NCBI GenBank assembly: GCA_963663185.1
Contig: OY760135.1
Location: 463,684-527,683, forward strand
Reading direction: 5' to 3'
DNA: 64,000 nucleotides
Source: Dehalococcoidia bacterium
GTDB taxonomy: Bacteria > Chloroflexota > Dehalococcoidia > Bin125
This document shows positions 1,503 to 41,630 of the stretch, piece by piece. Positions within the stretch are counted from its first letter, which is position 1. Every line of letters begins with the position of its first letter. The position numbers and the translations under genes are program-made. Under the pieces are notes generated by a model, which did no database searches, had not been told where the DNA came from, and worked only from the letters and a program-made list of their open reading frames with translations.

Positions 1503-1657
1503 AAGGCCCCCGAGACGACAGTCAACTAAGACGCAGCCGATCCGGCCGCCACAACGGCACGCCCAGATGCGATCCTAAGCCAGTAGGTGTGGTTCAGATC
1601 GTTGACATCGCGCTATCACGGCTACGCTTAGTCTGTTCAGTAAGAAGGGCGGCAACT

Positions 1658-9578: not shown

Positions 9579-9582
9579 GACC

Positions 9583-9873
9583 ATGGACGTTATCGTCACT
9601 TACGATATCGCTGACACGCAAGGAGCAGGCCGGGTGCGCCTCAGACGCGTGGCCGACGTCTGCGGAAAGTACGGTCAACGGGTCCAGTTCTCAGTGTTCG
9701 AGTGTCGCCTCTCGAACACGAAGCTGACCCGTATGATCGGCGAGATCGAGGACGTAATCGATCGTCGGAAAGACTCTGTGATCGTCTACCGGTTCCCTGG
9801 TGCTGCTGAAGACTCGAAAATTCACCTTGGCCGCACCGATTCGCGAAAGCTCGGGGAACCTTGGATACTCTGA
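9583..9873 (+). CDS. cas2: Cas2
   Basis: ATG at 9583, 96 aa: MDVIVTYDIADTQGAGRVRLRRVADVCGKYGQRVQFSVFECRL... is the typical Cas2 fold signature. The ORF-track start at 9217 is an upstream in-frame extension. Confidence 0.8.
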   Translation: MDVIVTYDIADTQGAGRVRLRRVADVCGKYGQRVQFSVFECRLSNTKLTRMIGEIEDVIDRRKDSVIVYRFPGAAEDSKIHLGRTDSRKLGEPWIL

Positions 9874-10025
9874 GCACCGCTGCGAACCGCCGGTGATTCG
9901 GTTTCTCAACCGCCCGAAATGCTCCATGTCAGCGAAAGCAGACTTTCAAGTGACCTCCACGGGTAGTAGAATCACGAAGAAGGGAGTCTTGCCCCTCCGC
10001 CTTGACAACAGAATCCGATTTAGCA
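9874..10025 (+). promoter_or_regulatory. Putative CRISPR leader
   Basis: 152-bp region between cas2 stop and first repeat. The terminal, degenerate repeat is at the opposite end of the array, consistent with a leader here. Confidence 0.5.
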
Positions 10026-10794
10026 GTGTCGCCGGGATTCAGGTCCCGGCCTTCGTTGAGCGCGGGGCCGCGCCGAATCTGACGGTAACGTCACCGCCGT
10101 GTCGCCGGGATTCAGGTCCCGGCCTTCGTTGAGCGAGCGCTAACGCACTCCAGTGCACTAACGCGCGCGTGGTGTCGCCGGGATTCAGGTCCCGGCCTTC
10201 GTTGAGCGCTCAAACTCAAACATTGGACTCTCAATCCCTAGCGGTGTCGCCGGGATTCAGGTCCCGGCCTTCGTTGAGCGGGCTCGCACGTACACGATCA
10301 CGGGGTTGACAGCAGGAGTGTCGCCGGGATTCAGGTCCCGGCCTTCGTTGAGCGACTGCTGACATGGCGACTACGCTGAGCCTTGACGAGTGTCGCCGGG
10401 ATTCAGGTCCCGGCCTTCGTTGAGCGGAATGGCGTCGGTTACATCCGGCTGTTCGGGCTGATTGTGTCGCCGGGATTCAGGTCCCGGCCTTCGTTGAGCG
10501 CGACAGGAAAACTGATGTCGCTCAGCCCATCAATGGGTGTCGCCGGGATTCAGGTCCCGGCCTTCGTTGAGCGCCGAATGCCGACGACGACTACGTGGGG
10601 GCAGTGGAGGTGTCGCCGGGATTCAGGTCCCGGCCTTCGTTGAGCGCGCTCGGTCGTGGCCGAGCTGGGCCGCCGCGGGATGCAGGTGTCGCCGGGATTC
10701 AGGTCCCGGCCTTCGTTGAGCGCCGCGAACGCGTGGACACACGGCCAGAGAGACAGGGTGTCGCCGGGATTCAGGTCCCGGCCTTCGTTGAGCC
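10026..10794 (+). CRISPR. CRISPR array, 11 repeats of 37 nt (GTGTCGCCGGGATTCAGGTCCCGGCCTTCGTTGAGCG), 10 spacers of 35-39 nt
   Basis: Repeat starts at 10026, 10099, 10172, 10244, 10318, 10390, 10464, 10537, 10610, 10686, 10758. The repeat contains hairpin CCGGGA-TTCAGG-TCCCGG. The last repeat differs at its final base (C for G). Confidence 0.95.
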
Positions 10795-10881
10795 TTCAAG
10801 ATTGCCCCATCCAGCTGTCGCTTCAAGCTCGAACGTGTGGAGGGAGTGTGACCATCGTAGGCTGCGATAGGCTGCGATCTT

Positions 10882-19377: not shown

Positions 19378-22300
19378 TTAGTCGTCGTCGAGGATGGTGC
19401 CGGTGGCCGTGCCGTCGGTGATAACTGCGCCATCCGCCTCCGTCAGGATCAGCGTCAGCGTCTCATCGGCCTCTCGGCGACTGTCGTCGTAGATGTTCAC
19501 GCCGGCATGGGCCCACGTCCAACCTGGCCAGAAGATCACCTTGAGGTTGCCGATCGCGTAGTCCACGCCATTCGTGGCGGTTCCCGCGCGGATGTCATAC
19601 TCGACCGTAACGGTCTCGTCCGACGCCTCGCTCAGCGTGACGACGAACGCCAGATACCAGCTCCCTTCGATATCCGAGGCGTCTGCCACCGATACCTCTG
19701 GCAGCTGTTGCGTCGGCGGCGCGTCGTCGTTGTCCGACACGGCGACCGTGCCCGCGCCTTGCGAGCTCGACACGGTGTAGCCGCTGCCCGTGTTGACCGT
19801 CGCCGTGACCGAGCCGTCCGACTCGTCGGTTGAGTCGTCGCTGGTGGCGATCGTCAACGTGACGCTGCCGCTGGTCGGGATGGTGACTGTGCGCGAGCCG
19901 GTGCTCGCGCCGAAGTCGCCGCTCTGGCTGACCGTCACGCTGACCGGCAGGTCTGCCGACGGGGAAGGACTCGCCGTGACGGTGAACTCGACGTTGCCGC
20001 CCTCGGTGACGCTGGCGCCTGCGCTGATGCTCACCACTGGCGTAATGTCGTTGTCCGACACCGCGACCGTCCCGGTCTTGCTGGAACCGAGGTCGTAGGC
20101 AGCGCCGTCAACCAGAGTCGCCGTAACCGAGCCGTCCGGCTCGTCCACTGAGTCGTCACTGGTGGCGATGCTCAACGTGACGCTGCCGCTGGTTGGGATG
20201 GTGACTGTGCGCGAACCCGTGCTCGCGCCGAAGTCGCCGTCCTGGCTGATTGTCACTTCGACATCCAGGTCAGCCGTGGGCCTCGGGCTCGCTGTGACGG
20301 TGAACTCGACGTTGCCGCCCTCGGTGACCGCGTTGCCGGCGCTGATGCTCACGACCGGCGTCGGCGGGACATCGTTATCCGACACGGCCACCGTGCCCGA
20401 GCCCTGCGAGCTTGAGACCGTGTAGCCGCTGCCGCTGTTGACCGTCGCCGTGACCGAGCCGTCGGACTCGTCCGTCGAGTCGTCGCTGGTGGCGATGCTC
20501 AACGTGACGCTGCCGCTGGTCGGGATGGTGACGGTGCGCTGGCCCGTGCTTGCGCCGAAGTCGCCGCTCTGACTGACCGTCACGCTGACCGGCAGGTCTG
20601 CCGACGGGGACGGACTCGCCGTCACCGTGAACTCGACGTTGCCGCCCTCCGTGACGCTGGCGCCGGCGCTGATGCTCACCACCGGGTCCGGTACCACGAT
20701 GACCGGCGCAACTGTCACGTCGTCGTCCGTCACGTTGACGCTTTCCGAGCCGAGTGAGCCGACCGTGTAGCCGTTGCCGCTGTTCAGCGTCAGCGACACT
20801 GAGCCGTCCGACTCATCGACCGAGTCGTCGGTCGTCGTGATGCTCAGGGTGAAGCTGCCGCTCGTCGGTATCGTCACGCTGGATGGGATCGAGCCGTAGC
20901 CGAAGTCGCCTGTCGTGACCACGTTGATGCCCACGCTGAGGTTCGCCGATGGAGCCGGATTCGCGGAGATCGTGAAGCTGACCGTGGCGCCCTCTGAGCC
21001 TCCGCTGGAGCTGAGGATGTTCACCTCAGGCGTCGGCGGGATGACCACAGGTGGAATGACCACGGTCGGTATCACCGGCGGCGGATTGGTCGTCGCGCCG
21101 GCCTCGATCAGCCGCAGCTGCGCCGCGATTGGAACCCAACGTCGCCAGCCCGCGTCGGCGTAGACTTGCGCGGCTGCCGCGGTCATCGGCTCCAGATCGG
21201 GGTAGCTCTCGACGCCGAAGGCCTCGAGCACGCGCTTCCAGCGATTCACGTGCTGCGCGCCGTTCTGCGTCTCGCCCGCGTAGCTGCGCACGTTCGCGAG
21301 CACCTGCGGGTCGACCTGCGCGTTCGTAGGCGCGGGCGCCGGTTGCGGGTTCGCCGCCTCCAGCGCGACCAGGTACTCAGCCACGGGAATCCACCTCGCC
21401 CGGCCAATGTCCACGTGGGCCTCGGCCTCGCCGGCTGTTGTCGGCTCGAGATCCGGATAGCTCTCGACGCCGAAGGCCTCAAGCACGCGCTTCCAGCGAT
21501 TCACGTGCAGCGTGCCGTGTTGTACTTCCGCCGCGTAGCTGCGTACGTCCGACTCCAACTGCGCGTCCAGCACCGGCCCGGTCGACGTCGGCGCAGCGTC
21601 GTTGTCCGACACGTCCACCGTCTGCGACGAGCTGGACCCCAGGGTGTAGCCGGTGTCCGCGTTCAAGGTCGCCGTAACCGTCCCGTCGGGTTCTTCGACG
21701 TTGTCGTCGGTGGTGTCGACGCTCAGCGTCGCGGAGCCCGATGGAGGGATGAGCACTGACACCGGACCGGTCGCAACTCCGTAGTCGCCGGTCGCCGAGA
21801 CCGTGGCGTCCACCACCAGACCCACTACGGGCGGCGGATCAGCCGTGACCGTGAAGCTGGCGGAGCTGCCCTCGACGCCACCGCTGGCCGCGGTGATATC
21901 CACCTCGGATATCGCGTAACTGTCGTCGTCAAGCAGCACGATAGCCACCGCCGACGGCTCACCCACCGAGTACCCGTCACCGGGGGCAATGCGCCCCTCA
22001 ACCCGGCCGTCGACGCGAGGTTCGCTGTCGGAGTAGGCAGTGGCGCTCCACGAGGCTGTGGTCTGGCCCGCGGTCATCGTGATCGAGCTGGCGAGCCCTT
22101 GGCCGACGTAGTCCAGCCCTTCGCCCATGAACTCCTCGACGGCGACATTCACCGTGAGGTCGGTCTGCGGCGCCTGGTCAGCGGTGACGGTGAAGCTGAC
22201 GACGCCCCCTTCGGTGACTGACGCCGTGTCCGCCGCGATGCTCAGCGTCGGCGCCGCAGCAGTCTGCTGGCGAGCAGTGACCGGGGTGCCTATGGTCCCG

Positions 22301-24159
22301 GAGCAGGCGATGCTGCGCGCAAACCAGACGCCGTAGCCACGAGTGTCAGCCATCTCGAAGCAGAACTGCAAGACCTCCCCGGCCACCCGGTCTCCCCGAA
22401 TGGTCACCGGTGTGACGGCGACCCGGTAGGGAACCGGGGTGGGAACCACGCCCCAGTTCGTCGCCGGAAGGCCCAGCACAGTCAACGCGACCGACCACTG
22501 AGTCTTGTCCCACGGATGCTTGGCCGGGATGATCGCTTCTTGTGCAGCTTGGCCCGAGGTGGTCATCGACACCTCGAACCGGTCGAAGTTCTCGTTGGCG
22601 TGCGCGTAGTCGTTGCCGTCCGCGTCGGGCAGCGCCCATCGCCACGCCAGGGTGGTCTTGAGCACGCCGCCCCGGCCGGAGGTGGAGTCCGCGTACGCCG
22701 TGAGCTCCTGGGCATAGGTGGACTGTGTCTGCGGCACATCGTGGTCGTTCACCCACGCCTGCACGCTCTGGTACTCCGCCGGGGGGATGACTCGCCGGAG
22801 AGCCGTGACCGTCTGTCCTGGCGCAGTGAAGTCCGGCACACACCCGTTCGACTCGCTGCAATGCGTTCTGGGCCTGGTGATCCCCTCTGTCGCGGGATAC
22901 TCCAAGTTCACATACTCATAGACGACAGGCCCGCCGTGAATCCGGGCGCTGTGCCAGATCTCCGTAGGTACGTGATAGCGATGCTTGGCGCAATGCACCT
23001 GCACCGTCACCGTTTGGGGCGTGCTCCAGTTCGACGAATCGAAGCGCAGCCGTGTGTAGCCGAGATTCAAGTTCACCGGCGGGGTGCCCTGCGGACCGTG
23101 CCAACGGCGGACACGTGAGTTCTCCACAGAAACGCGGCCCTTGGTATCCGGGCGCGGCAGCACTGAGTATCCCGCGTGCTTGCCGATGTCGTCGGCGAGC
23201 GCGCCGACGCCCATGTCATCGGGGTCGTAAATGTCCACATGCACATAACGGCCCGGGCCGGGGTCCTCTGTTAGCTTCACCGTATAGGTGTCCGAACTCA
23301 GGGTTGCTCCCGCACTAGTCACGCCCGACGGGCAACTCGCGTGTTCGTCGAAGCGCAGATCGCTTTTGCTCAGTTCCACCAGATCCGTAGCCACCTTGAA
23401 CACCGGCGAGATCCCGTACAAGGAGTGACTTTGGCGGCGTGAGGCAGAGGTAAAGCCTAGCGGGCCCCTTTCGCCGGGGTTCGCCATGGCTCGGCCTTGG
23501 GTGACGACCTGGCTGCCAGTACCATAGCCTAGCGGGTTGCTGGACTTGGTGCCGTTGTTGTTGGTGCCGGTCCAGGTCCAGTCGTTAGGGACCGTGGTGC
23601 CCTGCTGGTTGCGTCGGTCGGCCACCGCCCAGTTGATCCAGCGATCTTGCCAGAAGCCGTTGTAGTTCGCAGCCACCTGCGGCCCGTTCAACCAGTAGAT
23701 GAGCTCGCCGGCACCGTCGGTGGACGGGTTCATGTTGGTGTGGTCGCGGGCGTCCACCGCTGCCGTCGACCCCACCACCCTGAACAGCGACGCATACGGC
23801 CGGATCGCCGGATGCGCGATCTGATTCGCGTTCCCGCTGGTCCTGCCGATCTCCCGCTGCACGAACGTGTCGTAGGTAGCGATGTCGGTGGCCGTGGCGT
23901 CGCGCCACGTGGTGGTCACGAACAGCAGCCGGAACGTCTGGCCCGGCCCGATCCCTGACGGGATCAGCGGCCAGTCCTGCGGGACGGTGTAGGTTCCGTC
24001 AGCGCTGGCCGTCGGGACGGTCTGCGCCTGCGCCGACTCATGCCGCAGTCCTCCCGGCAAGATCGCTGCGACGACCGCAACCGCAATCAGTGCTGCCAGC
24101 GCCAGCAGCCGCCTCGCGCTTCGGCCCCTCGCCGCCCTCGCACGCCGCGCCCTCAACAT
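19378..24159 (-). CDS. Giant secreted repeat protein (1593 aa) with Calx-beta-like modules and C-terminal Calx-beta domain
   Basis: N-terminal signal MLRARRARAARGRSARRLLALAALIAVAVVAAILP. About 10 modules of about 100 aa (VSISAGASVTEGGNVEFTVTASP ... DDSTDESDGSVTATV ... VSDND), three of them near-identical. Two tandem about 70-aa NRWKRVLEAFGVESYPDLEP repeats. C-terminal Calx-beta (TVEYDIRAGTATNGVDY ... DDSRREADETLTL). Confidence 0.8.
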   Translation of the reverse strand: MLRARRARAARGRSARRLLALAALIAVAVVAAILPGGLRHESAQAQTVPTASADGTYTVPQDWPLIPSGIGPGQTFRLLFVTTTWRDATATDIATYDTFVQREIGRTSGNANQIAHPAIRPYASLFRVVGSTAAVDARDHTNMNPSTDGAGELIYWLNGPQVAANYNGFWQDRWINWAVADRRNQQGTTVPNDWTWTGTNNNGTKSSNPLGYGTGSQVVTQGRAMANPGERGPLGFTSASRRQSHSLYGISPVFKVATDLVELSKSDLRFDEHASCPSGVTSAGATLSSDTYTVKLTEDPGPGRYVHVDIYDPDDMGVGALADDIGKHAGYSVLPRPDTKGRVSVENSRVRRWHGPQGTPPVNLNLGYTRLRFDSSNWSTPQTVTVQVHCAKHRYHVPTEIWHSARIHGGPVVYEYVNLEYPATEGITRPRTHCSESNGCVPDFTAPGQTVTALRRVIPPAEYQSVQAWVNDHDVPQTQSTYAQELTAYADSTSGRGGVLKTTLAWRWALPDADGNDYAHANENFDRFEVSMTTSGQAAQEAIIPAKHPWDKTQWSVALTVLGLPATNWGVVPTPVPYRVAVTPVTIRGDRVAGEVLQFCFEMADTRGYGVWFARSIACSGTIGTPVTARQQTAAAPTLSIAADTASVTEGGVVSFTVTADQAPQTDLTVNVAVEEFMGEGLDYVGQGLASSITMTAGQTTASWSATAYSDSEPRVDGRVEGRIAPGDGYSVGEPSAVAIVLLDDDSYAISEVDITAASGGVEGSSASFTVTADPPPVVGLVVDATVSATGDYGVATGPVSVLIPPSGSATLSVDTTDDNVEEPDGTVTATLNADTGYTLGSSSSQTVDVSDNDAAPTSTGPVLDAQLESDVRSYAAEVQHGTLHVNRWKRVLEAFGVESYPDLEPTTAGEAEAHVDIGRARWIPVAEYLVALEAANPQPAPAPTNAQVDPQVLANVRSYAGETQNGAQHVNRWKRVLEAFGVESYPDLEPMTAAAAQVYADAGWRRWVPIAAQLRLIEAGATTNPPPVIPTVVIPPVVIPPTPEVNILSSSGGSEGATVSFTISANPAPSANLSVGINVVTTGDFGYGSIPSSVTIPTSGSFTLSITTTDDSVDESDGSVSLTLNSGNGYTVGSLGSESVNVTDDDVTVAPVIVVPDPVVSISAGASVTEGGNVEFTVTASPSPSADLPVSVTVSQSGDFGASTGQRTVTIPTSGSVTLSIATSDDSTDESDGSVTATVNSGSGYTVSSSQGSGTVAVSDNDVPPTPVVSISAGNAVTEGGNVEFTVTASPRPTADLDVEVTISQDGDFGASTGSRTVTIPTSGSVTLSIATSDDSVDEPDGSVTATLVDGAAYDLGSSKTGTVAVSDNDITPVVSISAGASVTEGGNVEFTVTASPSPSADLPVSVTVSQSGDFGASTGSRTVTIPTSGSVTLTIATSDDSTDESDGSVTATVNTGSGYTVSSSQGAGTVAVSDNDDAPPTQQLPEVSVADASDIEGSWYLAFVVTLSEASDETVTVEYDIRAGTATNGVDYAIGNLKVIFWPGWTWAHAGVNIYDDSRREADETLTLILTEADGAVITDGTATGTILDDD

Positions 24160-24339
24160 GAGGGGGGGGGGGGGGGTAGAGAACAGCTTGATCGGAGCGT
24201 CACGTCAGATCTCCCTTCGCTGTCTCCAGCGATAGCACCACTTACCACAAGATAGCCGCAAGCGGCATTTCACTGACGGTATTGATCTGTGATCGAGAAC
24301 GCAAGCACATGACGACCCGTCCGGGCCAATCTATGCAGC

Positions 24340-24925
24340 TATCGCAAATCCCACTCCGTCCCCGCCTCCGAGCGGGGACCCGTTCCGTCCCCTCGCAGGC
24401 CGCTACCAAGCGGGTCCCCGCTCGGGGGCGGGGACGGGGAAGGCAGGGGGGGGGGCTCCAGCCTCAGCCGTGTCGTCGTATCCGGTTCGGCAAGGGGGCG
24501 CCCCCTCTGTCACTGCGTAACATCTCCCCCGCAGAGCGGGGGAGAAAGCAGCACAGACGCGAGAACTGTTTCGGCAGCTTGCTGCACAAGTCGGTTCGCC
24601 GCTCCCAACCGACCCGGCCTCCGAGCGGGTCCCCGATCAAGTCGGGGACGGTTGGTTCAAGCCTGCGGCAGCCAATGCTGCCCTCCCGTCCCCGCCTCCG
24701 AGCGGGGACCCGTTCCGTCCCCTCGCAGAGCGAGCTAACCACTCTCGCTCGCAAGCTGCATGAGCCGCTCTCTTTTCTCCCCCCGCGAAGCGGGGGGAGA
24801 TGCCGAAGGCAGAGGGGGGGGGGCTCCAGCCTCAGCCGTGTCGTCGTATCTGGTTCGGCAAGGGGGCGCCTCCTCTGTCACTGCGTGACATCTCCCCCGT
24901 AGAGCGGGGGAGAAAGCAGAACAGA
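24340..24925. repeat. Imperfectly duplicated about 350-bp unit built from GC-rich hairpin (REP-like) elements with embedded G10/G11 tracts
   Basis: E1 CCGTCCCCGCCTCCGAGCGGGGACCCGTTCCGTCCCCTCGCAG at 24356-24398 and 24686-24728. E2 (about 110 bp, AGGCAG-G10/11-CTCCAGCC ... TCTCCCCCGCAGAGCGGGGGAGAAAGCAG) at 24441-24551 and 24806-24920. Related hairpins GTCCCCGC-N6-GCGGGGAC recur at 24412-24437, 24622-24642 and 58435-58462. Confidence 0.8.
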
Positions 24926-24973: not shown

Positions 24974-27900
24974 TTACGTCGGATCGCCTGGTTGCGGCAC
25001 GCCGGGCAGCACCTCTGGCGCGGGCGGCGGCTCCGAGGTCACGATTACGAAGCTGCTGATCTGATCGGTCAAGGCGCAGACCTGTTGCGCGGACTCGGGC
25101 ATCGTCAGATGCAGCACGGTCCAGGTCAGGCTGTCGGGGTTCCAGCGGGCGATGTCCGTGAGTGAATCACCAACATTGGACGGCTGCGGCAGGCAGATGC
25201 GGAATTCCTCGCTGATCGCCTCATCGCGGCCCAATCGCCATACGGTGTTGGCGTCCAACAGGGGCTGGTACCGCAGCATCCAGAGCGAGATCTCGATCAG
25301 CGGTTGCGACGATGACACGTCGTAACGCCGCCCGCTCGCGTGATCCAGAATGTACCGCTCACCGTCTCGCCCTGAGCGGAAGCGCGGGCGTTTGTCGGCG
25401 ACGCTGTGGAGCTGAGTGGTGATGTAGAAGCCGCGTGATAACGCCATCTGCTCGTCAGTCAGGGTCGCTGAGAGATCGTTCAGGGTGAGCAGCCCGGTTC
25501 CGGCGCACGGCCGTTGGCTTGGCGCCTCGCGGCCCAGCGTGGGGAACGGCTGCGGGGCGGGCTCCGCCACGTCGCTGACGACGCCTCGGCAGAAGAAGGC
25601 GGGGTCTGACGCCACGATCGCGGCGCGAGGCGGATTCTGTGGACTCGGCGTGCCGCCGACGTTGGTCTGCACCGTCGGCGCGATGGTCGGCGCAATGGTC
25701 GGTGCAATGGTCGCGCGTACGATGACCTCAAGGCTCTTCTGCACAATGACGCCATTGCGGGAGATCTCGACCTGCACGGTCTGTCGGTCGGCCTGGCTGG
25801 GCGTGCCGTACAGACTGGGCTGGGTGCATCGCAGGTTGATCCCGGCAGGCAGCGTGCCGCCGGTCTGGCGGCACTGAATGCCTGTGGTGCCGCCGCTATA
25901 GCTTCCCAGATTGTGCGTAGCGGTCTGTCCCTGTTGGAATGCCACCTGCTGCGGGAAGTTGTTCACATCCAGACCGAGGTCGTTATCCGTGATCGTCAGC
26001 GTGTGGATGCCGGTCCCACCCAAGCTGTATCCAGACCCGCCAGTCAGCGTGAACACGAGCGACTCGGTCGACTCATGCACATTGTCGTTGACGATCTGGA
26101 CCGCAATGTTGACGGATGTGGCGCCCGACGCGACCGCGACCGTGCCGCTGTTGCTGATGGCATAGTCGGGCGTCGCAGCCGCGCTGCCCGACAAGCGGTA
26201 GCTGACCGAGATCGCGCTGGTCGGCGCGGGAGAGATGGAGAGCGCGACCTGGACGGAGCCGGCATCCTCAGCGGCAGTCTGCGACGCCGACGCAAACGAC
26301 ACGATCGGCGTGTTGGTGGGCGGCGGGTTGTCATTGTCGGCGATGTTGACCGTCGCTGCCGACGGATTGCCGATCGTGTACCCGCTGCGCGAATTCAGCG
26401 TCGCCGTGACCGAACCGTTCGGCTCGTCGGTGGAGTCGCCTGTCGTCGTCAGTGACAGCGCACCCTGTCCGTTGGTTCCAACCGTGACCGTCCTGGTCCC
26501 GGTTGATACGCCGTAGCTTCCGCTCGCGCTGACGGTGAGGCTGGCGTCCAAGGGGCTGTGCGGCGTTGGGCTTGCCGTCAGCGTGAAGCTGGCGGCGGCG
26601 CCCTCCGTGATGTCGGCGCCGCCCGCAATCGTCAGCACGGGCACATCATTGTCCCTGATCGTCAGAGTGTGCGCCCTCGTGCCTCCCACGCCGTAGCCGG
26701 CGCCGTCCGACAGCGTCAGCGTCAGCGTCTCGTTGGGCTCATTGTTGGCGTCGTCGGTGATCGTCACCGGTATGTCGACCACGGTCATGCCCGATGCCAC
26801 GCTGACTGTTCCGTTGTTGCTGGTCACTCCAGCGATCGAATAATCGGCGCCACGCGTCGCCGTGCCGGAGAGCGCGTAGCCGACCGACACGGTCGAAGTC
26901 GGCGCCGGCGAGATGGTCAATCTCAGGTTGCGGGCACCGATGCTCTCCGCCACCGACTGCGACGCCAATGTCCACGTCACCTGCGGCTTCGGACGGACGG
27001 TGAGATCGATCGTGAAGCTGGCGGTCTGACCCGTGGGCTGGCGAGCATCGGTCGCTGTGATGGTGTATGTCCGCCGCGATGCGGCCGCCGTCGGCGACCC
27101 GCTGAGCACGCCGCTCGTGCTGCCGAGCGTCAGCCCGGACGGCAGCGCCGGCGAGACCGTGTAGCGGACGGCGCCATCCGCATTGTGGAGCGTGGGCGGG
27201 TTGTAGCTGACCGCCGCCTGACCGACAGTCAGCGTCTGCGACGGCAGGCTGGCCGCGCCAAAGACCATCGCGTCGATTACGGAAATGTCGACGGTGTACG
27301 TCGCGGATTCGGGCGGAGTCTCAGAGTCGGTCGCCGTGATGGTGTACGTCTGCCTTGCCGACGCCGCGGTCGGTGTACCGACGATCGATCCGTCGGTCGA
27401 CAGGGAGAGGCCGGCGGGCAATGCCGGCGACACGCTGTATCCGACTGCGCCGTCCGCGCCGTACATGGTTGGGCGATTGATCTGAGGGTTGATGGAGCTC
27501 GCTGATCCGAGCGGGATGTCCTTGATCAGCGACCGATGGCCGAGCGAGTTGGGGTTGAACTTCAGTGATGTCGGAAGGAAGGTCACCGTCACCTTGTGCG
27601 AGGCCGACAGGGTAGGTTTCGCCCCCTTCGAGTACACACAACGGACGTTGATCGTGTACGTCACCGGGTTCGCGGCGGGGACTGAAGCGGCGCGACCGAT
27701 CAGAGGCCATTGTCCGTTATTTGACAGCTTGGTCACGGCCAGACCGTTGTAACTCAGGCCAAAGTCAGGGGTCGGCTGGACATTCAGCGCCCCACCGTGT
27801 TGGTCGTGGGCCTGGAGCGGGTACAGCGTCACCGCGCATTCCGTGGTGTTGTTGGAGTGCCTCGGCACGCCCACCAACGTCGGAGCGGCGTAGACCGGCG

Positions 27901-28081
27901 TTTCGCCCACCTCAACGGAGACCGCCACCGTCGCCGGGCTGAAGGAAAAGGGCGGCTCGCTGGCCCGCGAGCTCTGAGCGTCTCCGAAGAGAGACGCGCC
28001 GAACACCGCGCCAACGACGGCGGCAAACGCGATCAGCAAACCGACGCCTTTGAACATGTGTAACTGGACGTGGTCTGTCAT
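24974..28081 (-). CDS. Giant secreted protein (about 1035 aa) with Ig/cadherin-like and Calx-beta-like domains
   Basis: Likely start ATG at 28081 preceded by GGGGAGGAGGAAC (the ORF-track TTG start at 28105 is less likely). N-terminal TM/signal GVGLLIAFAAVVGAVFGASLFG. Repeated YxVSPALPAGLSL..TG.ISGTPT..YTITATD (putative Ig domain) and SVTEG...FTLTAS...DDS.DEPNGSVTATL modules. Contains in-frame TIAPTIAPTIAPT (12-nt x3 repeat at 25660-25700). Confidence 0.8.
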   Translation of the reverse strand: MTDHVQLHMFKGVGLLIAFAAVVGAVFGASLFGDAQSSRASEPPFSFSPATVAVSVEVGETPVYAAPTLVGVPRHSNNTTECAVTLYPLQAHDQHGGALNVQPTPDFGLSYNGLAVTKLSNNGQWPLIGRAASVPAANPVTYTINVRCVYSKGAKPTLSASHKVTVTFLPTSLKFNPNSLGHRSLIKDIPLGSASSINPQINRPTMYGADGAVGYSVSPALPAGLSLSTDGSIVGTPTAASARQTYTITATDSETPPESATYTVDISVIDAMVFGAASLPSQTLTVGQAAVSYNPPTLHNADGAVRYTVSPALPSGLTLGSTSGVLSGSPTAAASRRTYTITATDARQPTGQTASFTIDLTVRPKPQVTWTLASQSVAESIGARNLRLTISPAPTSTVSVGYALSGTATRGADYSIAGVTSNNGTVSVASGMTVVDIPVTITDDANNEPNETLTLTLSDGAGYGVGGTRAHTLTIRDNDVPVLTIAGGADITEGAAASFTLTASPTPHSPLDASLTVSASGSYGVSTGTRTVTVGTNGQGALSLTTTGDSTDEPNGSVTATLNSRSGYTIGNPSAATVNIADNDNPPPTNTPIVSFASASQTAAEDAGSVQVALSISPAPTSAISVSYRLSGSAAATPDYAISNSGTVAVASGATSVNIAVQIVNDNVHESTESLVFTLTGGSGYSLGGTGIHTLTITDNDLGLDVNNFPQQVAFQQGQTATHNLGSYSGGTTGIQCRQTGGTLPAGINLRCTQPSLYGTPSQADRQTVQVEISRNGVIVQKSLEVIVRATIAPTIAPTIAPTVQTNVGGTPSPQNPPRAAIVASDPAFFCRGVVSDVAEPAPQPFPTLGREAPSQRPCAGTGLLTLNDLSATLTDEQMALSRGFYITTQLHSVADKRPRFRSGRDGERYILDHASGRRYDVSSSQPLIEISLWMLRYQPLLDANTVWRLGRDEAISEEFRICLPQPSNVGDSLTDIARWNPDSLTWTVLHLTMPESAQQVCALTDQISSFVIVTSEPPPAPEVLPGVPQPGDPT

Positions 28082-28606
28082 GTTCCTCCTCCCCATTAGC
28101 GACAATCAACGACACTCCGTAGGCGACCGGCACTGACGCTTGGGTCCACGCAGGTCGGTAGCCGATAGTGTATGTAGGCATTTGCAAACAGAGTCGGTTT
28201 TTGACACATTATTGATCTGGCGCGCAGGCACACGCTGCTTCAGTTCGCGTCGATGACCAGTTACATCAAATGCAGGTAAACCAGCCGATAGGTTATGCAC
28301 CAAAGTAGATCGCCGCCGACCGCGAATTGTGAACGGCGACAGCGACCTCCGGCTTGCCTGCGGTCTCTTCAATCTGAGAGAGCTTGGGAGGGCGGCAGGG
28401 CCAGACCAAGGCCAGACCAGGGCCAGACCAGGGCTTGTTGACATAGCTCCGTTCAGTGCCCCGCTCAACCCCAGATCGATGGTCGTGCCCGCGCTTGCCG
28501 CGGATATCTTGCGGCAGTCCGCAGGCGGCAGCTTAAACGCCGCGCCACAGCCCTCTCTGGGTGTGGAGAGCTGTGGCGGCGTTTCCTGCGGGGAGGCGGC
28601 TTGCGA

Positions 28607-31600
28607 CTAGCGAGCGTCGAGCCGGCCTCGCGCCCAGCCCTTGGCAATAGAACCTCCGACCGGGTCAGAGAGCTGGATGTAGATCATGTCGTTGTGGTTG
28701 AACTGAGCGTTCAGGCCGATATGCACGTTGATCATGGTTTCGGTCTCCCCCGCGGCGAACGTGAGCGTGCCGCTGGTCCGTCCATGGTCGTCCTGGAAGT
28801 CAAGTCCAGGGAAGAGGAGCGGGGAGAAGCGTCCCATCGTGTATTCCACACTGACCTCGCTCGTAGCGGGGGCATCCAGGGTGACCGGGAACACGAGGGT
28901 TTCTCCGGGGCGCGCTTTGCTCATGGGATTCATGATCGACACTTGCGGGCCTGGCGCCATGTCATCGTCCGTGATGATGAAGGTGCCTGAAGACGGAGCG
29001 CCAATCAGGTAACTGTTGTCCTGTTTGACGCTGACGGTCACTGACCCGTCATCTTCATGGACGGTGTCGTCGACGAGCGGGATGCTGAAGTTAACACTGC
29101 TTGACGCCCCTTTGCCGCCCGGGACGGTCACTGACATGGCGCCTGTCTGGACGCCGAAGTCACCCTTGGCGGCGACATCCAGGTAGACCGTCAGGTCCTG
29201 GTACGGCAACGGGTTCGCCGAGACCGAGAATGTCGCCTCGCCGCCTTCGTAGAGCGCTACGCCGCGTTGGCCTCTCTTATCGATCACCACCTTTGGCGTG
29301 TCGTTGTCAAGGATGGTGAGACTGGCCTGGGAGGGGTCTCCCAACGTGTAGTGTTGGTGAGCCACGAGTCTGACCTTCAGGGTGGAGGAGGCTTCGTTAA
29401 AGCGGTCGTCCCTGGTGGAGACGGTGAGAGTAGCAGTCGCGCCGCTAATCCAGACTCCGGCTGGATTGCCCGTCTTCATCTTTCCTTCCACCTCTGCGGC
29501 GACGATGACGAACATCCGCACTGACGACGGCGGGTCCTGCGTGATCGTGAATGTGGCCTGCTGACCCTCGGTAACGTCATTGCCAGCGCTGATCGTCAGC
29601 ACTGAATTTTCCGGTGGCGTCACTTCGTCGTCGGCCACGTTGACGCGGGCCGTGGACGGACTCCCCACGTGGTAATCGCTGCCCGGCTGGACCGTCGCGC
29701 TGACGGAGCCGTCCGGCTCGTCGAGGCTGTCATTGGTCGTGGGCAGGCTGAGCGTCGCGGAGCCGCTGGTGGGGACGCTGACGGTTCGAGCGCCCGTGGT
29801 GACGCCGAACTCGCCCACGGTCACGACCTTCAGGCTCACATCCATCGGTTGCGCAGGCGCCGGGCTAGCGGAGATGGTGAAGCTGGCAGCGCCGCCCTCG
29901 GTGATGTCACCGTCGGCGCTGATGCTGACTGAGGAGCCGTCGTCGTCGGCCACGCTAACGCTGGCCGAGGACAGGCTCCCGACGCGGTAACCGCTGCCCG
30001 ACTGCACCGTCGCGCTGACGGAGCCGTTCGACTCCTGGACGCTGTCATTGGTCGTGGGCAGGCTGAGCGTCGCGGAGCCGCTGGTGGGGACGCTGACGGT
30101 TCGAGCGCCCGTGGTGACGCCAAAGTCGCCCGCTGCCGCGACGTTCAGGTCTACCGACAAGGGCTGGTGCGGCGTCGGGCTGGCGGAGATGGTGAAGCTG
30201 GCAGCGCCGCCCTCGGTGATGTCACCGTCGGCGATGATGCTGATCTCGGGCACGTCGTCGTCAAGCACGGGGAGCGTAGCGGCATCAGGCGTGCCGACTG
30301 TGTAGCCGTTGCCCGTCTGGACTGTCGCGGTCACTGTGCCATCCGCCTCGTCAACGCTGTCGTCTATCGTGGGCAGCCGGAACAGCAGGCTGCCGTTGCC
30401 TGAGCTCGGAATGGTGACGCTGCGGGCGCCAGTCTGCACGCCGAAATCGCCCGTGGCCGTAATGTCCAGGTTGACGGTGATGGCCTGCTGCGGCATTGAA
30501 CTGGTGCTGAGGACGAAGATCGCTGATTCGCCTTCGCTCGGTCTACTCTCCTGGTCCCGACGGGTGATGCTGACTTCCGGGACATCGTTGTCCGCCACGC
30601 TGATGCTGGCCGACGACGGATCGCCAACGTCGTAGCCGCTGCCCGGCTCGACGGTCGCGGAGACGGAGCCGTCGTTCTCGTCCTGACTGTCGTCAACGGT
30701 GGTGATGGTGTAGCTGGCGGTCGTGCCGCTGAGCTCCACGGTCTCTGCGCCTGAGGCACCGAAGTCCCCGTCCTGCGACGACGTGATCGTGATGGTGAGC
30801 GGACTGGTGGGGGCCTGCGTCGCGTGGATGGTAAAGACGCCCGCGCCGCCTTCGCTGATGTCATTGCCGCTGATGATGGTGATCACCGGGTTCCCGATCT
30901 GGCCGGGAGCGTCGTTATCCCACACCTGGGCCATGCCTGAGGACGGCTGACCGACGGTGTAGTCAGCGCCCGGCAGGACCGTCGCGGTGATGTAACCGTG
31001 CGGCTCGTCCCAGCCGTCGTCAGTGGTGCTGACGGCGTAGTGGGTCGTCGCCTCGCTGACCGTCACGGTAGCCGCGCCGGTGGCGCCGAACGTGCCGGTC
31101 TGCGAGACGGCCACGTTGACGGTGAGCGTGCTGGTCGGCACTGGCGCCGCTGTGATCACGAAGTTGGAGGTACCGCCCTCGGTGACTGAGCCGCCGTTCG
31201 CGATCGTAATCACCGGCAGGGAGCTGGGGTCCGAGACGATGACGAAGTCGTAGTCAGCTGCTGAGGACAAGGTGTAGCCGGCGCTGGAACTCGGCGTATC
31301 CAGCACGGCCCCGATCACGGCGCGAGGTTCCTCAACGGCATCCGCATCCGTGCCGACGGTCAGTACGGCCGTCGTTTCGCCGCCCAGGATGGTGACTGTT
31401 CTCGATCCAGCCTGGCCGAATGCCACGACGCCGCTGTTGAACGGCCAGTCGTTCACGGTCACGGCGATCGTCAGGTCGGCAGATGGGGCCTCGGACGCGG
31501 TGACCGTGAAGCTCGCGTCGTCTCCCTCCGTCACGTCGCCCTGGGCAGTGATGCTGACTTCAGGCAGCGACTGCGCGGAGGCTAGCTCCCCCCCCCCTCA

Positions 31601-31689
31601 TTCCACAGAAACAACAGGGGCACGGCGAACGCCAACAACACGAAGAGCCGGCCTGGACCCTTCGCCTTCAACAGTTCGAGTTTCATCAT
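28607..31689 (-). CDS. Giant Calx-beta-like repeat adhesin, currently out of frame at a G10/C10 homopolymer separating signal peptide from mature protein (putative phase-variable; OFF as sequenced)
   Basis: SD AGGAGGGTC then ATGATG at 31689-31684 encodes MMKLELLKAKGPGRLFVLLAFAVPLLFLWNEGGGS-stop through the C10 tract 31588-31597. The long body ORF (28607..31534, reported as MTEGDDASFTVTAS...) is in the +1 frame; one extra G would fuse them as ...WNEGGGELASAQSLPEVSITAQGDVTEGDDASFTVTAS. The body has about 9 Calx-beta-like modules. Confidence 0.6.
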
Positions 31690-32006
31690 GACCCTCCTGT
31701 GCGCCGCCGTCAAAGCGGCGACCACAATGCATGTTCTACGGCGGAAAGCCGCTCTCAATGTGAGCTATTGTACTAGATTTAGGAAGCGATGTGTAGAGTC
31801 AGCGTCGCGGTCACTGATTCATCCACAATCCGGCGGCGGAATTCGTTGAGGATGGCTGAGTCGCGTGGGTCGAATGGGTCGAGCGGGTCGAGTGGACGAA
31901 TGGCGGTCGATGCCGACGTCAGTCAGGCAGTCATCGGAGTCAGCGGCCGGCGCCAGCCGCCGTCACGCCGTCAATTGCCGGGCATCAATGGCGGATCACC
32001 GAGCGC

Positions 32007-37848: not shown

Positions 37849-38751
37849 TTAGGTGCAATCGGTGTACCGACCGCTGAAGGCGAGCCACTGGCCATCGGGT
37901 GAGAAGGCGGCGATGTGATCGTTGCTCCAGCAGAAATCCGGCGAGGCCCGGAAGCGCTGTAGGACTTGAGCCGTCTCGGCGTCGATCAGGCGATACTCCA
38001 GGTACGAATGGCCGGCTGGACCCGCGTAGGACCGGCGCGGCGGATACGTGGCGATCCCGTCAGCATCTGTCAGACCTGCGTCGCGCGCACTCCGAGTCAG
38101 CAGGAGCTGACCGTCGGGCGACCAGTCCACGAGCGCATCGCGCCCATGTCCGTCTTCGCGCATCGGCAAGGGGAATGCGCGAACGTCGGCCTGTGAGTTG
38201 GACTGCGAGTCGGCATGCAAATGGTCGACGATGTAGCCCTGTCCGCCATAGGGCAACAGCGCCAGACGAGAGCCGTCGTCCGACCAGCTGACGCTGAGCC
38301 CACGCCACTCGCGGCCAACGTTGAGAGTCGGCAGCTGCGTGACTTCGTGTTGCAGCGCGTCGTATGAGGCTAGGGAGAGGATGCCTTCCGCGTCGTTGAA
38401 GCGGTGAAAGAGCGCGAAGCGCAGATGCTGACTGGCCAACTTCCAATCGCCGCCGTTGAGCGGCGCGGGTAGTTGCGCGATCTCGCCAGAGTGCAGGTCG
38501 ACTCGCTTCCAACCGAGCGGACGGCCGGCGTAGCTGAGCGCCAACATCTCGCTCGGGAATCTCCTGAGTGATGTCGGCGCCGTCAGCTCTCGCAGCAGGG
38601 TTCCGTCCGCTGCGTAGACGAGGTAGCGATCGTCCTGACCGATCAACACGGTGTCATCGCTGAGCCATGAGGAAGATTGGTGAAACGACAGCGGTACCAG
38701 CTCAGAGCGCGAGCCATCCACGCCGAGGAGAAAGACACCCCATGACTGCAA
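37849..38751 (-). pseudogene. C-terminal fragment of a TolB-like (PD40 beta-propeller repeat) protein, separated from its 5' part by an IS110 insertion
   Basis: PD40-type repeats YAADGTLL, WSDDGSRLALL, VDWSPDGQLLLT, FSPDGQWLAF. No signal peptide. Immediately adjacent to the IS110 transposase. Confidence 0.55.
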
Positions 38752-40226
38752 GAGTCAAGCAGCGGCGCGATCCTCGTGGCGTGAACGGTGACTCCAGGCG
38801 AGGACTTCGTCGTAGGGGGTCTGCGAGCGGAGGCACCCGTGCAGGTAGCCGACGAGGCGGTTCGCCAGGGCGCGGAGGGCCTGGTAGTGCGGGTCGCCGG
38901 CGGCGCGACGGCGGTCGTAGAAGTCGCGGCAACCGGGGCTCGCGCGCAACGAACACATCGCCCACTGCATGGTGGCGTCGCCGAGCCGCCGGTTGCGGAT
39001 GAAGCGCGCCCTCACGGTGCGCTTGCGGCCCGATGCTACGGTGAGGGGCGAGGTGCCGGCGTAGTTCCTGCGGGACTTCGCCGACTCATAGCGTTCGGGG
39101 TCGTCCCCGAACTCGCCAAGCACCCGGGCGCCGAGCACGACACCGAGACCGGGCATGGAACGGTAGATGTCGGCGTCCGGGTGCTGCTCAAAAGAGGCTG
39201 CCAGCTCGGCCTCGAGTTCGGCGATCTGTCCGTTGATCGCGTCGATCTGGGTCACGGTCGCCCTGGTCGTCGCGGCGAAGGCCTGGCTGACCGTGGCAGG
39301 CACCTCCAGCTGCTCGACTCGGAAGGCCTGACGGAGCTCGGCGGCGCGCTGCTCGACGTTACGCTGGCGGCCGCCGCGGCGCAGCGCCGAGCGCATCTGC
39401 GACGTGCTCAGCCGCGCCGCCTCGCGCGGCCCCGGTGCGGTCGCCAGCACCCCCACGGCGTCGCCGTGCGCCAGGCTGGGAAACGCTTGCAGGGCCCCGG
39501 GAAAGTACTCCCTGAGCGCGTTGCGGAGCCGGTTCGTCTGCCGGGTGCGGTCCCAGACGAGTTGTTGGTGGGCGCGGGCGAGGATACGCACGGCGGCCGC
39601 CTCGTCGCTGTCGCCGGCGACCTCGCGGTGGTTATGCCGGTCGGTCCGCACGAGGTCGGCGAGCAGCTTCGCGTCCCCGGCATCGGACTTGGCGCCACTG
39701 ACGTGGTGGCGGTCGCGGTAGCGCGACGCCGAGCGCGGGTTGATCGCGTAGACCCGGTAGCCGACCGCCACCAGGGCCATCACCCACGGGCCGCGGTCGG
39801 TCTCGATGCCGACGACCACCTCGTGCGGTCCCGAGGCGTGCCCGGCAACCAGTTCGTGCAGGGCGGTGATGCCCTCCACCCCTTCGGGCAGCCGCCGGGC
39901 GGCAAGCCGCTCGCCCGCTTCGTCCATGAGATGGACGTCGTGATGGTCCTCCGCCCAGTCATCACCCAAGTACAAGGCCATCGTGTTTCGGTTCCTCTCC
40001 AGTTCGCGCTTTCTGGTGCGACCCGGTGGGTTGGTTCCCGCGACGGCCTAATGAATCGGTGCTCTTGGGCACGACACCCCATCAGTGCTGCAGAACAACC
40101 CAGACATGCCGGCAAGGGCTCAGTCTTTCTTCAGCGGTCACACGCCGCAGGAACCGAGAGAGCTCACCGGCCAGCAGGGTCCAGGACCAGTCTGCCAGAG
40201 GTCCTCCGGCGACTGATCTGACCCCA
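38752..40226 (-). mobile_element. IS110-family insertion sequence (extent approximate)
   Basis: About 1.47 kb between the two TolB-like fragments, fully occupied by an IS110 transposase gene. IS110 elements lack obvious TIRs, so boundaries are inferred from flanking gene fragments. Confidence 0.6.
38755..39981 (-). CDS. IS110-family transposase (DEDD N-terminal domain plus Transposase_20 C-terminal domain)
   Basis: N-terminus MALYLGDDWAEDHHDVHLMDEAGERL matches the IS110 family (GIDWAxxHHDVALmD). 408 aa. Confidence 0.8.
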   Translation of the reverse strand: MALYLGDDWAEDHHDVHLMDEAGERLAARRLPEGVEGITALHELVAGHASGPHEVVVGIETDRGPWVMALVAVGYRVYAINPRSASRYRDRHHVSGAKSDAGDAKLLADLVRTDRHNHREVAGDSDEAAAVRILARAHQQLVWDRTRQTNRLRNALREYFPGALQAFPSLAHGDAVGVLATAPGPREAARLSTSQMRSALRRGGRQRNVEQRAAELRQAFRVEQLEVPATVSQAFAATTRATVTQIDAINGQIAELEAELAASFEQHPDADIYRSMPGLGVVLGARVLGEFGDDPERYESAKSRRNYAGTSPLTVASGRKRTVRARFIRNRRLGDATMQWAMCSLRASPGCRDFYDRRRAAGDPHYQALRALANRLVGYLHGCLRSQTPYDEVLAWSHRSRHEDRAAA

Positions 40227-41630
40227 TTAGAAGCCGTATTCACCGTGCCCTTCACCAGGTAGATAGAGACTCAGCAGGCGTCGCGAGTCGGGCGACCAGG
40301 ACAACGACGGGTCTGCCGGGTGATGCGTGAAGTAATAGGCGCCGGCATCGGGGAAGGTGATGGGCTCACCGCCGTCGACAGGGGTGATCGTGATGTCTCG
40401 GGAGAGGTCGCCGCTCTCATAGTCAGGCCGCGTGCCGCTGGCGGCGTAGCGACCATCCGGCGAGAAGACGACCCACTGCGAAGGCGCGAAGGCGATTGGC
40501 TCGGCATCCTCGAGCGGATTCCATCGCACCAGATCGTCGAGCTGCCCGACGATGCTGCCGTCGTCGCGCCATTGCCAGCGCCAGAGTTTGTCTGTGCGGC
40601 GAACCTCGCGGCTGCGCGCGCCGCGGGTTGGCGTCGCAATCACTTCGGTATCGCCGCTGAGCATGTACGGCAGCGATTCGGGATCGACGTTCAGTTCCAC
40701 CTCCGAGAGGCGCACCCAACCGACCGGTGGTTGCAAGTCGTTGAGCACGATCGCCAGCCATTCGCCATCGAGCGAGCGACCGAGTACGCCGTAGGTATGC
40801 GGATCCTGGTAGTCCCCATAGGTGTGGTATCCGCTCTCGCGCTTGCCGGGCCGCAGGAAGATGACGGGACTGCCAGTGCTGATCTCTGCCGTGACCCGAG
40901 TCTGGTCGCTCGGCGGATACCAGACGCCCCAGACCGTACCGGTGTAGACAGACAACGATCCTGAACCTCGGTTGATGTCCAGATCGTTCGCATCGGCCCA
41001 CAGCGCGTATTCGTTGTTCGGTAGCAGGATGGCGATCTGCCTCCCATCTTCCGACATTCCCAGCAGCCTGACGCGGATCGGCTCGGCGCCTGGCACGATC
41101 AGATCGCCCATCGGCAGCAGGTTGGGGTCTAGCATCGGCAAGGTCATGGCGTCATCGAGGGTCAAGGGCGTATCGGCCAGACGGACCCAACCATCCAGAT
41201 CGCCGTTCAGGTCCAGGTGCAGCCACAGCTCGCCGCTGTCGAGCTGGGTCCATCCGTCGCCCAGTAACAGGGTCCGCTCACGGAAATCCACGAACGGCAG
41301 GATGTCGTCGCGCGGTCTGTGATAGACGCTGAGCTTCTCGGTCAACCTGAGGAGCAAGTACGGATTGGATTCCGCTTCTGGAACGTCATCGCTCGGCCCC
41401 ACCGCAGCCGATTCGTCAGCTGGCTCAGCTGGTGACGCGGGCGCGGATTGCGGCGCATTCGATCGTTGCCCTGCGGGCTCCTCGGAGAGCGTGGTCTGGG
41501 ACTCTGACCGAGAGGGCTCGGTTTGGAGCGGCACCTGGACAGAGGGCACTGCGTCGTTCGAGCACGCGACCACGGCGGCCAGGGCGAACGATCCCAGCAG
41601 TACGAGTGAAACGACGAGCGCGTTGGACAT
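40227..41630 (-). pseudogene. N-terminal part of a TolB-like beta-propeller lipoprotein (interrupted by IS110)
   Basis: Lipoprotein signal MSNALVVSLVLLGSFALAAVVACS. PD40 repeats FSPDGRYAAS, WSPDSRRLLS. Ends about 250 bp from the IS110 transposase start. Confidence 0.55.

Follow-up and report, generated by a model that had tools for sequence, protein, structure and literature searches.

The best known switches built on simple sequence repeats (SSRs) place a homopolymer where a change in its length alters the reading or the expression of a surface-related gene. In Neisseria pilC, a G(9-20) tract lies inside the open reading frame (ORF), expression is ON or OFF depending on the frame and tract length varies among strains (PMC5953494). 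Campylobacter jejuni carries many G/C tracts of ~8-13 nucleotides (nt) in genes for surface structures, with bimodal lengths and differences between strains (PMC6321876, PMC8437040). A 5' poly(A) run in Listeria monocytogenes inlA leads, when out of frame, to a very short product, and insertion reverts this state (Orsi et al. 2010; PMC2831843), while the poly-C tract of Neisseria opc is located in the promoter and modulates the level of expression (PMC3960869). Here, we describe a homopolymer close to the start of the gene that encodes a predicted secreted Calx-beta repeat protein, hereafter gene 1, which lies on the minus strand of a 64,000-nt stretch of DNA from Dehalococcoidia bacterium (contig OY760135.1, positions 463,684 to 527,683), referred to as the window.

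Further precedents come from leader tracts and from frameshifts that are tolerated. Bordetella fim has a promoter/leader poly-C tract, the pilC tract was reportedly placed in the signal-peptide coding region as well (Jonsson et al. 1991), and homopolymer frameshifts in the insect endosymbionts Buchnera and Blochmannia are said to be rescued by transcriptional slippage (Tamas et al. 2008, Wernegreen et al. 2010). We consider it likely that gene 1 is a real SSR contingency locus, in which slipped-strand mispairing gates a Sec-exported protein of ~1,030 amino acids (aa), and that the window carries it in the OFF state.

The G10 tract of gene 1 and its alleles

The elements of gene 1 in the window are as follows, in the direction of transcription; a slash marks the predicted cleavage position.

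31767 to 31795, minus strand: promoter-like TACACA-17 nt-TACAAT, ~78 nt 5' of the start codon, a consensus match only
31693 to 31698, minus strand: Shine-Dalgarno (SD) sequence AGGAGG, 3 nt from the first ATG and 6 nt from the second
31582 to 31689, minus strand: signal-peptide ORF, 35 codons as G10, MMKLELLKAKGPGRLFVLLAFAVPLLFLWNEGGGS and a stop; intact orthologues have signal peptides that align with it
31588 to 31597, minus strand: G10 homopolymer (plus-strand C10), in the signal-peptide coding region
31571 to 31582, minus strand: A-S-A/Q codons, predicted signal-peptidase I site (AxA), motif-based, in the body frame and 3' of the tract
28607 to 31597, minus strand: gene 1 body, a 996-codon frame with about nine ~105-aa Calx-beta/LapA-type Ig-like repeats, ending ...GWARGRLDAR and a stop

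Read directly from the sequence, the SD at 31698-31693 is followed by the double start ATGATG at 31689-31684; the two spacings favour the second ATG, which is also the one picked by the gene caller in the intact allele of another strain (L091, see below). A consensus promoter scan returned two sites, with 0.1 expected. The 35-codon ORF has a basic n-region, a hydrophobic core of 15 residues and a truncated c-region, whose Gly-Gly-Gly is encoded by the G10 tract, and its TAG stop (31584-31582) falls 4 nt past the tract. The body is in the +1 frame relative to this ORF, where 996 open codons extend from a TGA at 31600-31598 as far as the stop at 28609-28607. The two are in frame at tract lengths of G11, G8 or G14, and one G added in silico yields a 1,027-aa fusion (...LFLWNEGGGELASAQSLPEVSITAQGDV... 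and ...LFLWNEGGGELASAQSLPEVSITAQGDVTEGDDA...), compared with products of 35 aa for G10 and 43 aa for G12.

An earlier sequence-only reading had described much of this correctly, namely the SD and ATGATG at 31689, the 35-codon ORF with its stop 4 nt past G10, the body in the +1 frame with a TGA 5' of the tract, and the fusion of the two frames by inserting one G or deleting two; the G11 fusion also exists as a natural allele. It had drawn the body as 975 aa (28607..31534), of which the end stands and the start does not, the 975-aa ORF from the GTG at 31534 being a mechanical call within the 996-codon frame. It had also put the tract strictly between signal peptide and mature domain, whereas the tract is rather inside the c-region, 7 codons before the predicted cleavage at ASA/QS. 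Finally, its 'giant adhesin' has to be toned down: the fusion measures 1,027 aa, and of the word adhesin only the Calx-beta repeat domains are borne out, the adhesive role being a label taken from the domain type.

The tract varies in length in nature. Exact-protein look-ups of gene 1 and of conserved neighbours led to four further conspecific genomes, which together with the window form an allelic series:

Window (this sequence): G10, OFF
L091 (Logan ERR3887488): G11, ON
L001 (ERZ21861969, 3.2-Mb contig): G12, OFF
L002 (ERZ21861943, 2.7-Mb contig): G12, OFF
L085 (Logan ERR3887490): G12, OFF

The five genomes are 98.4-99.4% identical and all distinct (0.5-0.94% apart over the 3 kb they have in common), and the 45 nt on either side of the tract are identical in all of them. 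In L091, a single ORF runs from the second ATG, MKLELLKAKGPGRLFVLLAFAVPLLFLWNEGGGELASAQSLPEVSITAQGDVTEG... (MKLELL...WNEGGGELASAQSLPEV...), through 499 aa up to the contig end. In the G12 genomes, gene callers give a 42-aa ORF and a body that starts from a fortuitous in-frame ATG (MRGGGELASAQ...) and lacks a signal peptide. The G10 strain is nearest to a G12 strain, the informative sites of the G11 strain are mostly common with a different G12 strain, and these patterns conflict; tract length is thus decoupled from relatedness, which argues that it changed repeatedly and recently. G10 and G12, being two units apart, plausibly passed through G11. Other exact searches came back empty: the window's 35-aa ORF had no exact match in the protein collection, the 975-aa ORF had none in the contig index, and exact-pattern scans for the tract flanks gave 0 matches in JGI metagenome contigs and GTDB representative genomes. 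A second length polymorphism is found between the enoyl-CoA hydratase gene and gene 1, where the 8-nt tandem unit TGACGGCG (~31973), some 285 nt upstream of where gene 1 starts, is present in two copies in the window and L085 and in three in L001, L002 and L091.

Alignments show the fused frame to be both ancestral and conserved. In orthologues of 789-825 aa, signal peptide, AxA-Q and first domain are continuous and align residue for residue with the fused reading of the window across the junction, including the motif LPxVSITSQGDVTEG; in P0011, LLLWGAVELAYAQGLPTVSITSQGDV aligns with LFLWNEGGGELASAQSLPEVSITAQGDV of the window, and the stretch over the junction reads ...LALLLWGAVELAYAQGLPTVSITSQGDVTEGDDAVF. 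The ASA/Q of gene 1 has its counterparts in AYA/Q, QAQ/S and VDA/Q, and the C-termini agree as well (...GRLNAR and ...GRLDAN in orthologues, ...GRLDAR in gene 1). These intact orthologues (P0011, P0017, P0022, P0025, P0029, P0042, P0044 and P0048, with matching loci L003, L004, L008 and L016) have no long G run at the junction, where L004, for example, has ATG TGG GGC ACG, so the gene 1 tract represents a lineage-specific elaboration of the c-region.

In Pfam, gene 1 matches Calx-beta (PF03160) with 40.2 bits and the LapA repeat domain with 38.9 bits, both above cut-offs of 27. The best Calx-beta stretch covers residues 936-981, the repeats upstream of it are divergent, and the body has a periodicity of 315-330 nt. 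The Pfam scan gave no match to an RTX module or to a C-terminal module of a type I secretion system (T1SS). Given the Sec-type N-terminal signal peptide with its AxA site, the lack of an RTX/T1SS match and the length of ~1,030 aa, the product is, on these features, a predicted secreted Calx-beta repeat protein and not a LapA-type T1SS giant adhesin. It may be associated with the surface, and its domain type suggests a possible role in adhesion.

The proposed switch and the competing explanations

In the switch that we propose, slipped-strand mispairing during replication would add Gs to the tract or remove them. At G11 (or 8 or 14), signal peptide, ASA/Q site and mature protein would form one ORF and the protein would be exported (ON), whereas at G10 or G12 translation would end after 35 or 43 codons and leave the body without an export signal (OFF). 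The Gly codons fall where the signal peptide tolerates differences in length, so that in-frame changes would be harmless. Slippage would presumably occur at a high rate and reversibly within a population, and switching may serve host interaction, or evasion of phage or phagocytosis, in the sponge in which this bacterium probably lives.

The tract is much longer than expected by chance. The window, with 64% G+C, contains 228, 32, 3, 0 and 0 G/C runs of 4, 5, 6, 7 and 8 nt, respectively, and then five of 9-15 nt:

31588 to 31597: G10 of gene 1, minus strand
24162 to 24176: C15 in front of gene 3
24446 to 24455 and 24814 to 24823: two C10s, minus strand, in an intergenic repeat
1397 to 1405: G9 in a transposase remnant

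G9 words occur 14 times, as compared to 0.60 +/- 1.02 in dinucleotide-preserving shuffles, and 0/100 shuffles reach 14.

Tracts of this length immediately raise the question of accuracy. If the true tract were G11, gene 1 would be intact in the window genome and the split an assembly artefact; a consensus, whether from long or from short reads, is least reliable at long G/C homopolymers, a G11 allele exists in the species (L091), and the contigs available from the window's own strain do not reach the tract. Against this, two independent Logan assemblies of that strain, L089 (8,761 nt) and L093 (3,738 nt), match the window at 100.000% identity, 12.5 kb in all with zero gaps, and L089 reproduces the G9 run. 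All three long assemblies give a length of 10 for the five intergenic C10 tracts, three genomes with differing runs and assemblers agree on G12, and contigs named in the style of SPAdes or MEGAHIT, which are probably short-read (for example L017 and the Logan contig L085), also carry tracts, so the tracts are not a long-read artefact. Over ~23 kb, window and L001 show no 1-nt indels at short homopolymers; their uncompensated indels fall in the long tracts, in a TC repeat (2 nt) next to an intergenic C10 and in intergenic repeats (8 and 11 nt), or are in-frame tandem duplications of 9-12 nt. A miscall would further leave unexplained the G12 OFF alleles of three genomes and the out-of-frame orthologue of another species (L005). 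We therefore regard it as very unlikely as an account of the locus; for the single base in question, G11 miscalled as G10 is unlikely too, and even so gene 1 would still be a length-polymorphic switch.

The body of gene 1 is maintained by selection. Ratios of nonsynonymous to synonymous substitution rates (dN/dS) were estimated by the method of Nei and Gojobori, with 74.6% nonsynonymous changes expected under neutrality. Between the window and L001, the body has 15 synonymous and 16 nonsynonymous differences (16/31; dN/dS 0.36, P=0.005), and between L001 and L002, both G12, dN/dS is 0.38 (P=0.044), similar to the values of the intact neighbours (0.26-0.44 for gene 2 and 0.25-0.41 for gene 3). 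None of the conspecific genomes has a second lesion in the 996 codons, and SD, signal-peptide ORF and flanks are perfectly conserved among them. A ratio below 1 and the lack of a second lesion mean that the body is kept functional although the consensus is often OFF, a pattern in keeping with a reversible switch, or with slippage in the course of expression, rather than with decay. Gene 1 thereby combines the four features of an SSR contingency locus that we examined: an SSR above chance length in an ORF or promoter, a frame that toggles between full-length and severely truncated products, a tract that is polymorphic between conserved flanks with both ON and OFF alleles in five genomes, and a gene that is otherwise intact and under selection.

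A decaying pseudogene, inactivated in most strains when a mutation-prone run suffered an ordinary frameshift, its length now varying by neutral drift, would agree with the OFF state of most sampled alleles and with the protein cluster at 90%, whose three members (998, 975 and 998 aa) include no fused full-length protein. We find it most improbable, as it is at odds with a dN/dS significantly below 1, with the absence of further lesions, with the conserved 5' region and with the intact allele of L091. In addition, an analogous tract occupies this site in a second species, and genes of the family show an enrichment of tracts at their 5' ends, which points to selection for the tract rather than to an accident.

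The frameshifted state could also be the norm, with the protein made from OFF alleles through slippage of RNA polymerase, or +1/-1 slippage of the ribosome, on the G run and with DNA switching secondary. Four of the five conspecific genomes and L005 are out of frame, yet purifying selection is seen even between two G12 genomes, and a homopolymer permits perfect re-pairing after a shift in either direction. However, G10 needs a -1 and G12 a +1 shift, so that no single programmed frameshift fits both, and the downstream region folds no better than its shuffles (z = -0.77), offering no stimulatory structure; on these two grounds, programmed ribosomal frameshifting was rejected. An in-frame DNA allele also occurs in nature (L091), and the documented cases of efficient transcriptional slippage mainly concern A/T rather than G/C runs. 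Slippage during expression as the main route is, in our view, very unlikely, though it is not exclusive of a slipped-strand switch, and transcriptional slippage from OFF alleles could contribute.

Returning to the slipped-strand switch, several points weigh against it. G12 is common to three strains and the OFF state prevails in the conspecific genomes and the L005 orthologue, which may mean that the frameshifted state is the norm; the excess is compatible with random phase, (2/3)^5 = 0.13. The five C10s of the intergenic repeat never vary, so a G/C run of 10 nt is not automatically unstable in this organism; RNA or DNA structure may hold them constant. The G10 itself is beyond the reach of the independent contigs of the window's strain, L093 ending at 32714, ~1.1 kb short. 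The evidence consists of consensus assemblies of strains; for frequent and reversible change within a clonal population, the defining behaviour of phase variation, it is indirect and lies in the decoupling of tract length from strain relatedness. The adhesin function is deduced from the domain type only. On balance, of the two options that the sequence-only reading had named, the phase-variable switch is supported by the G10/G11/G12 series and the miscall is weakened by the 100% identity of the same-strain contigs, zero indels and G9 included; the comparison with homologues that it had proposed found the fused frame conserved, and the downstream frame, for which lack of selection was to count against switching, is under purifying selection (dN/dS 0.36-0.38, P=0.005).

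Recurrence in sponge-associated genomes and the surroundings of gene 1

An alignment-based scan of GTDB representative genomes retrieved 80 loci with related N-terminal regions (544 kb), all from sponge-type metagenome-assembled genomes (MAGs). Their G/C runs of 4, 5, 6, 7, 8, 9 and 10-17 nt number 2986, 721, 111, 15, 3, 0 and 17, respectively, and thus form a second mode. All but one of the 17 long tracts are located in leader or signal-peptide code, or at most 60 nt upstream of large-protein ORFs with signal-peptide-like N-termini; some are 12-50 nt upstream of starts. The MAGs with long tracts belong to Dehalococcoidia, Acidimicrobiia/Aldehydirespiratoraceae, Poriferisocius and Spongiisociaceae. 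Positions within the loci are:

L005, 3048 to 3059
L011, 2887 to 2897
L015 and L034, 90 to 102
L016, 5492 to 5501
L017, 3841 to 3850
L028, 1640 to 1654
L031, 4688 to 4703
L036, 5226 to 5239
L075, 4557 to 4570
L054, L063, L070, L071 and L073, ~2552 to 2571

The most direct parallel is L005, from another Dehalococcoidia species, whose ~43% identical orthologue has G12 at the same signal-peptide site (...RSRWLIVMGLLAIALVLLW-G12-(G)EDAQAQQNHPPRVGISSQDDVTEG); it is out of frame and would need G10 or G13. Members of a paralogue family from two further Dehalococcoidia genomes carry, at one conserved leader position, C12, C15, C16, C16 and C17. In the same family (L054, L063, L070, L071 and L073), a conserved A8/A9 run is found ~260 nt further upstream (~2287-2303, gcgcgAAAAAAAAgacggtctca), with A9 in one member and A8 in four.

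The great majority of gene 1 homologues belong to sponge-associated MAGs (Poriferisodalis, Poriferisocius, Spongiisociaceae, Dehalococcoidia and Acidimicrobiia), and the best named relatives of a conserved CoA-transferase encoded in the window, 84-86% identical, are from Chloroflexi/Chloroflexota MAGs. The provenance of the homologues suggests that the Chloroflexota bacterium carrying gene 1 is probably a sponge symbiont. We give about even chances to a broader proposal, namely that sponge-associated bacteria of several phyla (Chloroflexota/Dehalococcoidia, Acidimicrobiia and others) have a phasome in which poly-G/C tracts of 10-17 nt were set repeatedly, and probably independently, into the signal peptide or leader of Calx-beta-array proteins. 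If true, symbionts would stochastically vary a coat of proteins with the same domain type as host aggregation factors, as bet-hedging against host recognition, phagocytosis or phage, and Chloroflexota would have their first reported case of SSR phase variation.

Two further Calx-beta genes follow gene 1, and the second of them has a tract of its own:

24974 to 28096, minus strand: gene 2, He_PIG and Calx-beta domains, own start and signal anchor (MGRRNMTDHVQLHMFKGVGLLIAFAAVVGAVF...), no tract (Pfam and ORF reading)
19378 to 24159, minus strand: gene 3, 1,593-aa Calx-beta/LapA-domain protein with signal peptide MLRARRARAARGRSARRLLALAALIAVAVV (Pfam and ORF reading)
24162 to 24176, minus strand: C15 tract, second candidate switch, 2 nt before the ATG (24159) of gene 3 and within a GTG-initiated (24203) leader

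A single gene split into three, suggested by all open stretches being in one frame, was rejected, since gene 1 ends like its orthologues (...GRLDAR and a stop) and gene 2 has its own start. The leader of gene 3 (VTLRSSCSLPPPPP...) is preceded by an SD and stops in the window at a TGA that overlaps the ATG (ATGTTGA), whereas L001 and L002 have C11+TC in place of C15 and a leader that shares its frame with the ATG. Leaders of a similar 'RSS..PPP' kind are found in the homologues P0042, L011 and L063. This tract is probably a second switch in the cluster, and its ON/OFF logic may be fusion, translational coupling or an effect of the untranslated region.

The two intergenic C10s terminate copies of a 113-nt repeat (24445-24557 and 24813-24925), which are 96% identical and fold far better than shuffles (z = -4.05), the C10 partly pairing with an internal G run. 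Strains have two, one and two copies, and all five end in exactly C10. Among the loci fetched, the repeat is confined to this species; it has no Rfam family, and a permissive search gave only sub-threshold noise from microRNA hairpins. The plus-strand flank of the gene 1 tract, CGACTGCGCGGAGGCTAGCT-C10-TC (31568-31599), is 77-78% like the 3' end of the repeat, CGACACGGCTGAGGCTGGAG-C10-TC (24812-24843 and 24445-24475); this could reflect a common tract origin or chance (rough P 1e-3 per comparison).

The window as a whole is a variable island with a type I CRISPR (clustered regularly interspaced short palindromic repeats)-Cas module, an Eco57I-like gene, a leucine-rich repeat protein, insertion sequences (IS) and the three Calx-beta genes. 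The CRISPR-Cas module (~1600-10800) comprises Cas_GSU0053, GSU0054, Cas3 with HD, Cas4, Cas1 and Cas2, and is followed at ~10.0-10.8 kb by what is probably the CRISPR array, a stretch that repeatedly matches itself in BLAST. Between strains, this region is 94-96% identical, as compared to ~99% elsewhere. Beside the cas genes, the G9 lies inside the C-terminal remnant of an IS5-like transposase (VRY-GGG-LAK) and is a further length-variable tract, outside surface-protein genes: it is G8 in L087 (1372-1379) and G9 in L089 (103-111), and L086 and L088 have no run of at least 7 nt. L086 (ERZ21861969) has a G10 at 1269-1278, by or within a Replic_Relax-like gene, in a segment missing from the window. 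An IS110-family insertion at 38735-40229 (transposase 38755-39981) is absent from this site in L001 and L002 and contains the only gathering-level Rfam match of the whole window, the IS-associated small RNA Ms_AS-4 (39076-39157). A known plasmid was rejected as the source, as a search with 24-34 kb returned only short matches to genes of short-chain dehydrogenases/reductases (SDR).

Comparison with known systems

The mechanism is already textbook knowledge, and it is the lineage and the ecology that are new: our literature search turned up no account of phase variation through homopolymers in Chloroflexota or in sponge symbionts. The alleles met with in nature, ON as well as OFF, provide sequence-level evidence for a contingency locus that gates the export of a Calx-beta protein in an uncultivated member of this phylum. 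How sponges recognize or tolerate their symbionts is an open question, which a stochastic switch makes testable in existing read sets, and the recurrence of the tract design in several phyla of sponge-associated MAGs suggests a general, overlooked layer of variation. There is also a practical side, since annotation pipelines split or truncate such genes (a 42-aa ORF plus an 'MRGGGELA...' body, or a 975-aa ORF with a GTG start), and the secreted-protein repertoires and pseudogene counts of symbiont MAGs are therefore biased.

As in Neisseria pilC, and likewise pglA, lgtA and nalP, gene 1 has a genic poly-G/C tract, in this case in a putative surface- or adhesion-related gene. In contrast to these, it belongs to Chloroflexota and not Proteobacteria, to an uncultivated and probable sponge symbiont instead of a human pathogen, and encodes an unrelated protein; switching rates are measurements from Neisseria only. 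C. jejuni is AT-rich and its targets are glycosyltransferases, whereas here the tracts remain outliers at 64% G+C and target large secreted repeat proteins. Gene 1 resembles inlA in that a homopolymer lies at the very 5' end of the gene for a surface protein, putative in the case of gene 1, but the inlA runs are poly(A)/poly(T) of at most 7 nt and those described here are poly(G/C) of 10-17 nt. Tracts of the opc and fim type are comparable to the C15 of gene 3 and to the upstream tracts of related loci; the gene 1 tract, in contrast to opc, is intragenic and would act on translation, and that of gene 3 abuts the ATG and is unfit as a -35/-10 spacer. Buchnera and Blochmannia resemble gene 1 in that a frameshift at a homopolymer persists across lineages with the downstream ORF under purifying selection, and differ in having poly(A) runs in housekeeping genes of tiny genomes, as opposed to G/C runs, in-frame DNA alleles and a shift direction that varies by allele. 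At the protein level, LapA-type RTX adhesins have in common with gene 1 the tandem Calx-beta/Ig-like repeats, reflected in its Pfam matches to the LapA domain and Calx-beta. Sponge aggregation factors consist of a signal peptide and arrays of Calx-beta domains (PMC5400394), so that interaction with, or mimicry of, the host matrix by the gene 1 product is a reasonable guess, although gene 1, without Wreath or VWA domains, is not an architectural homologue of these host proteins.

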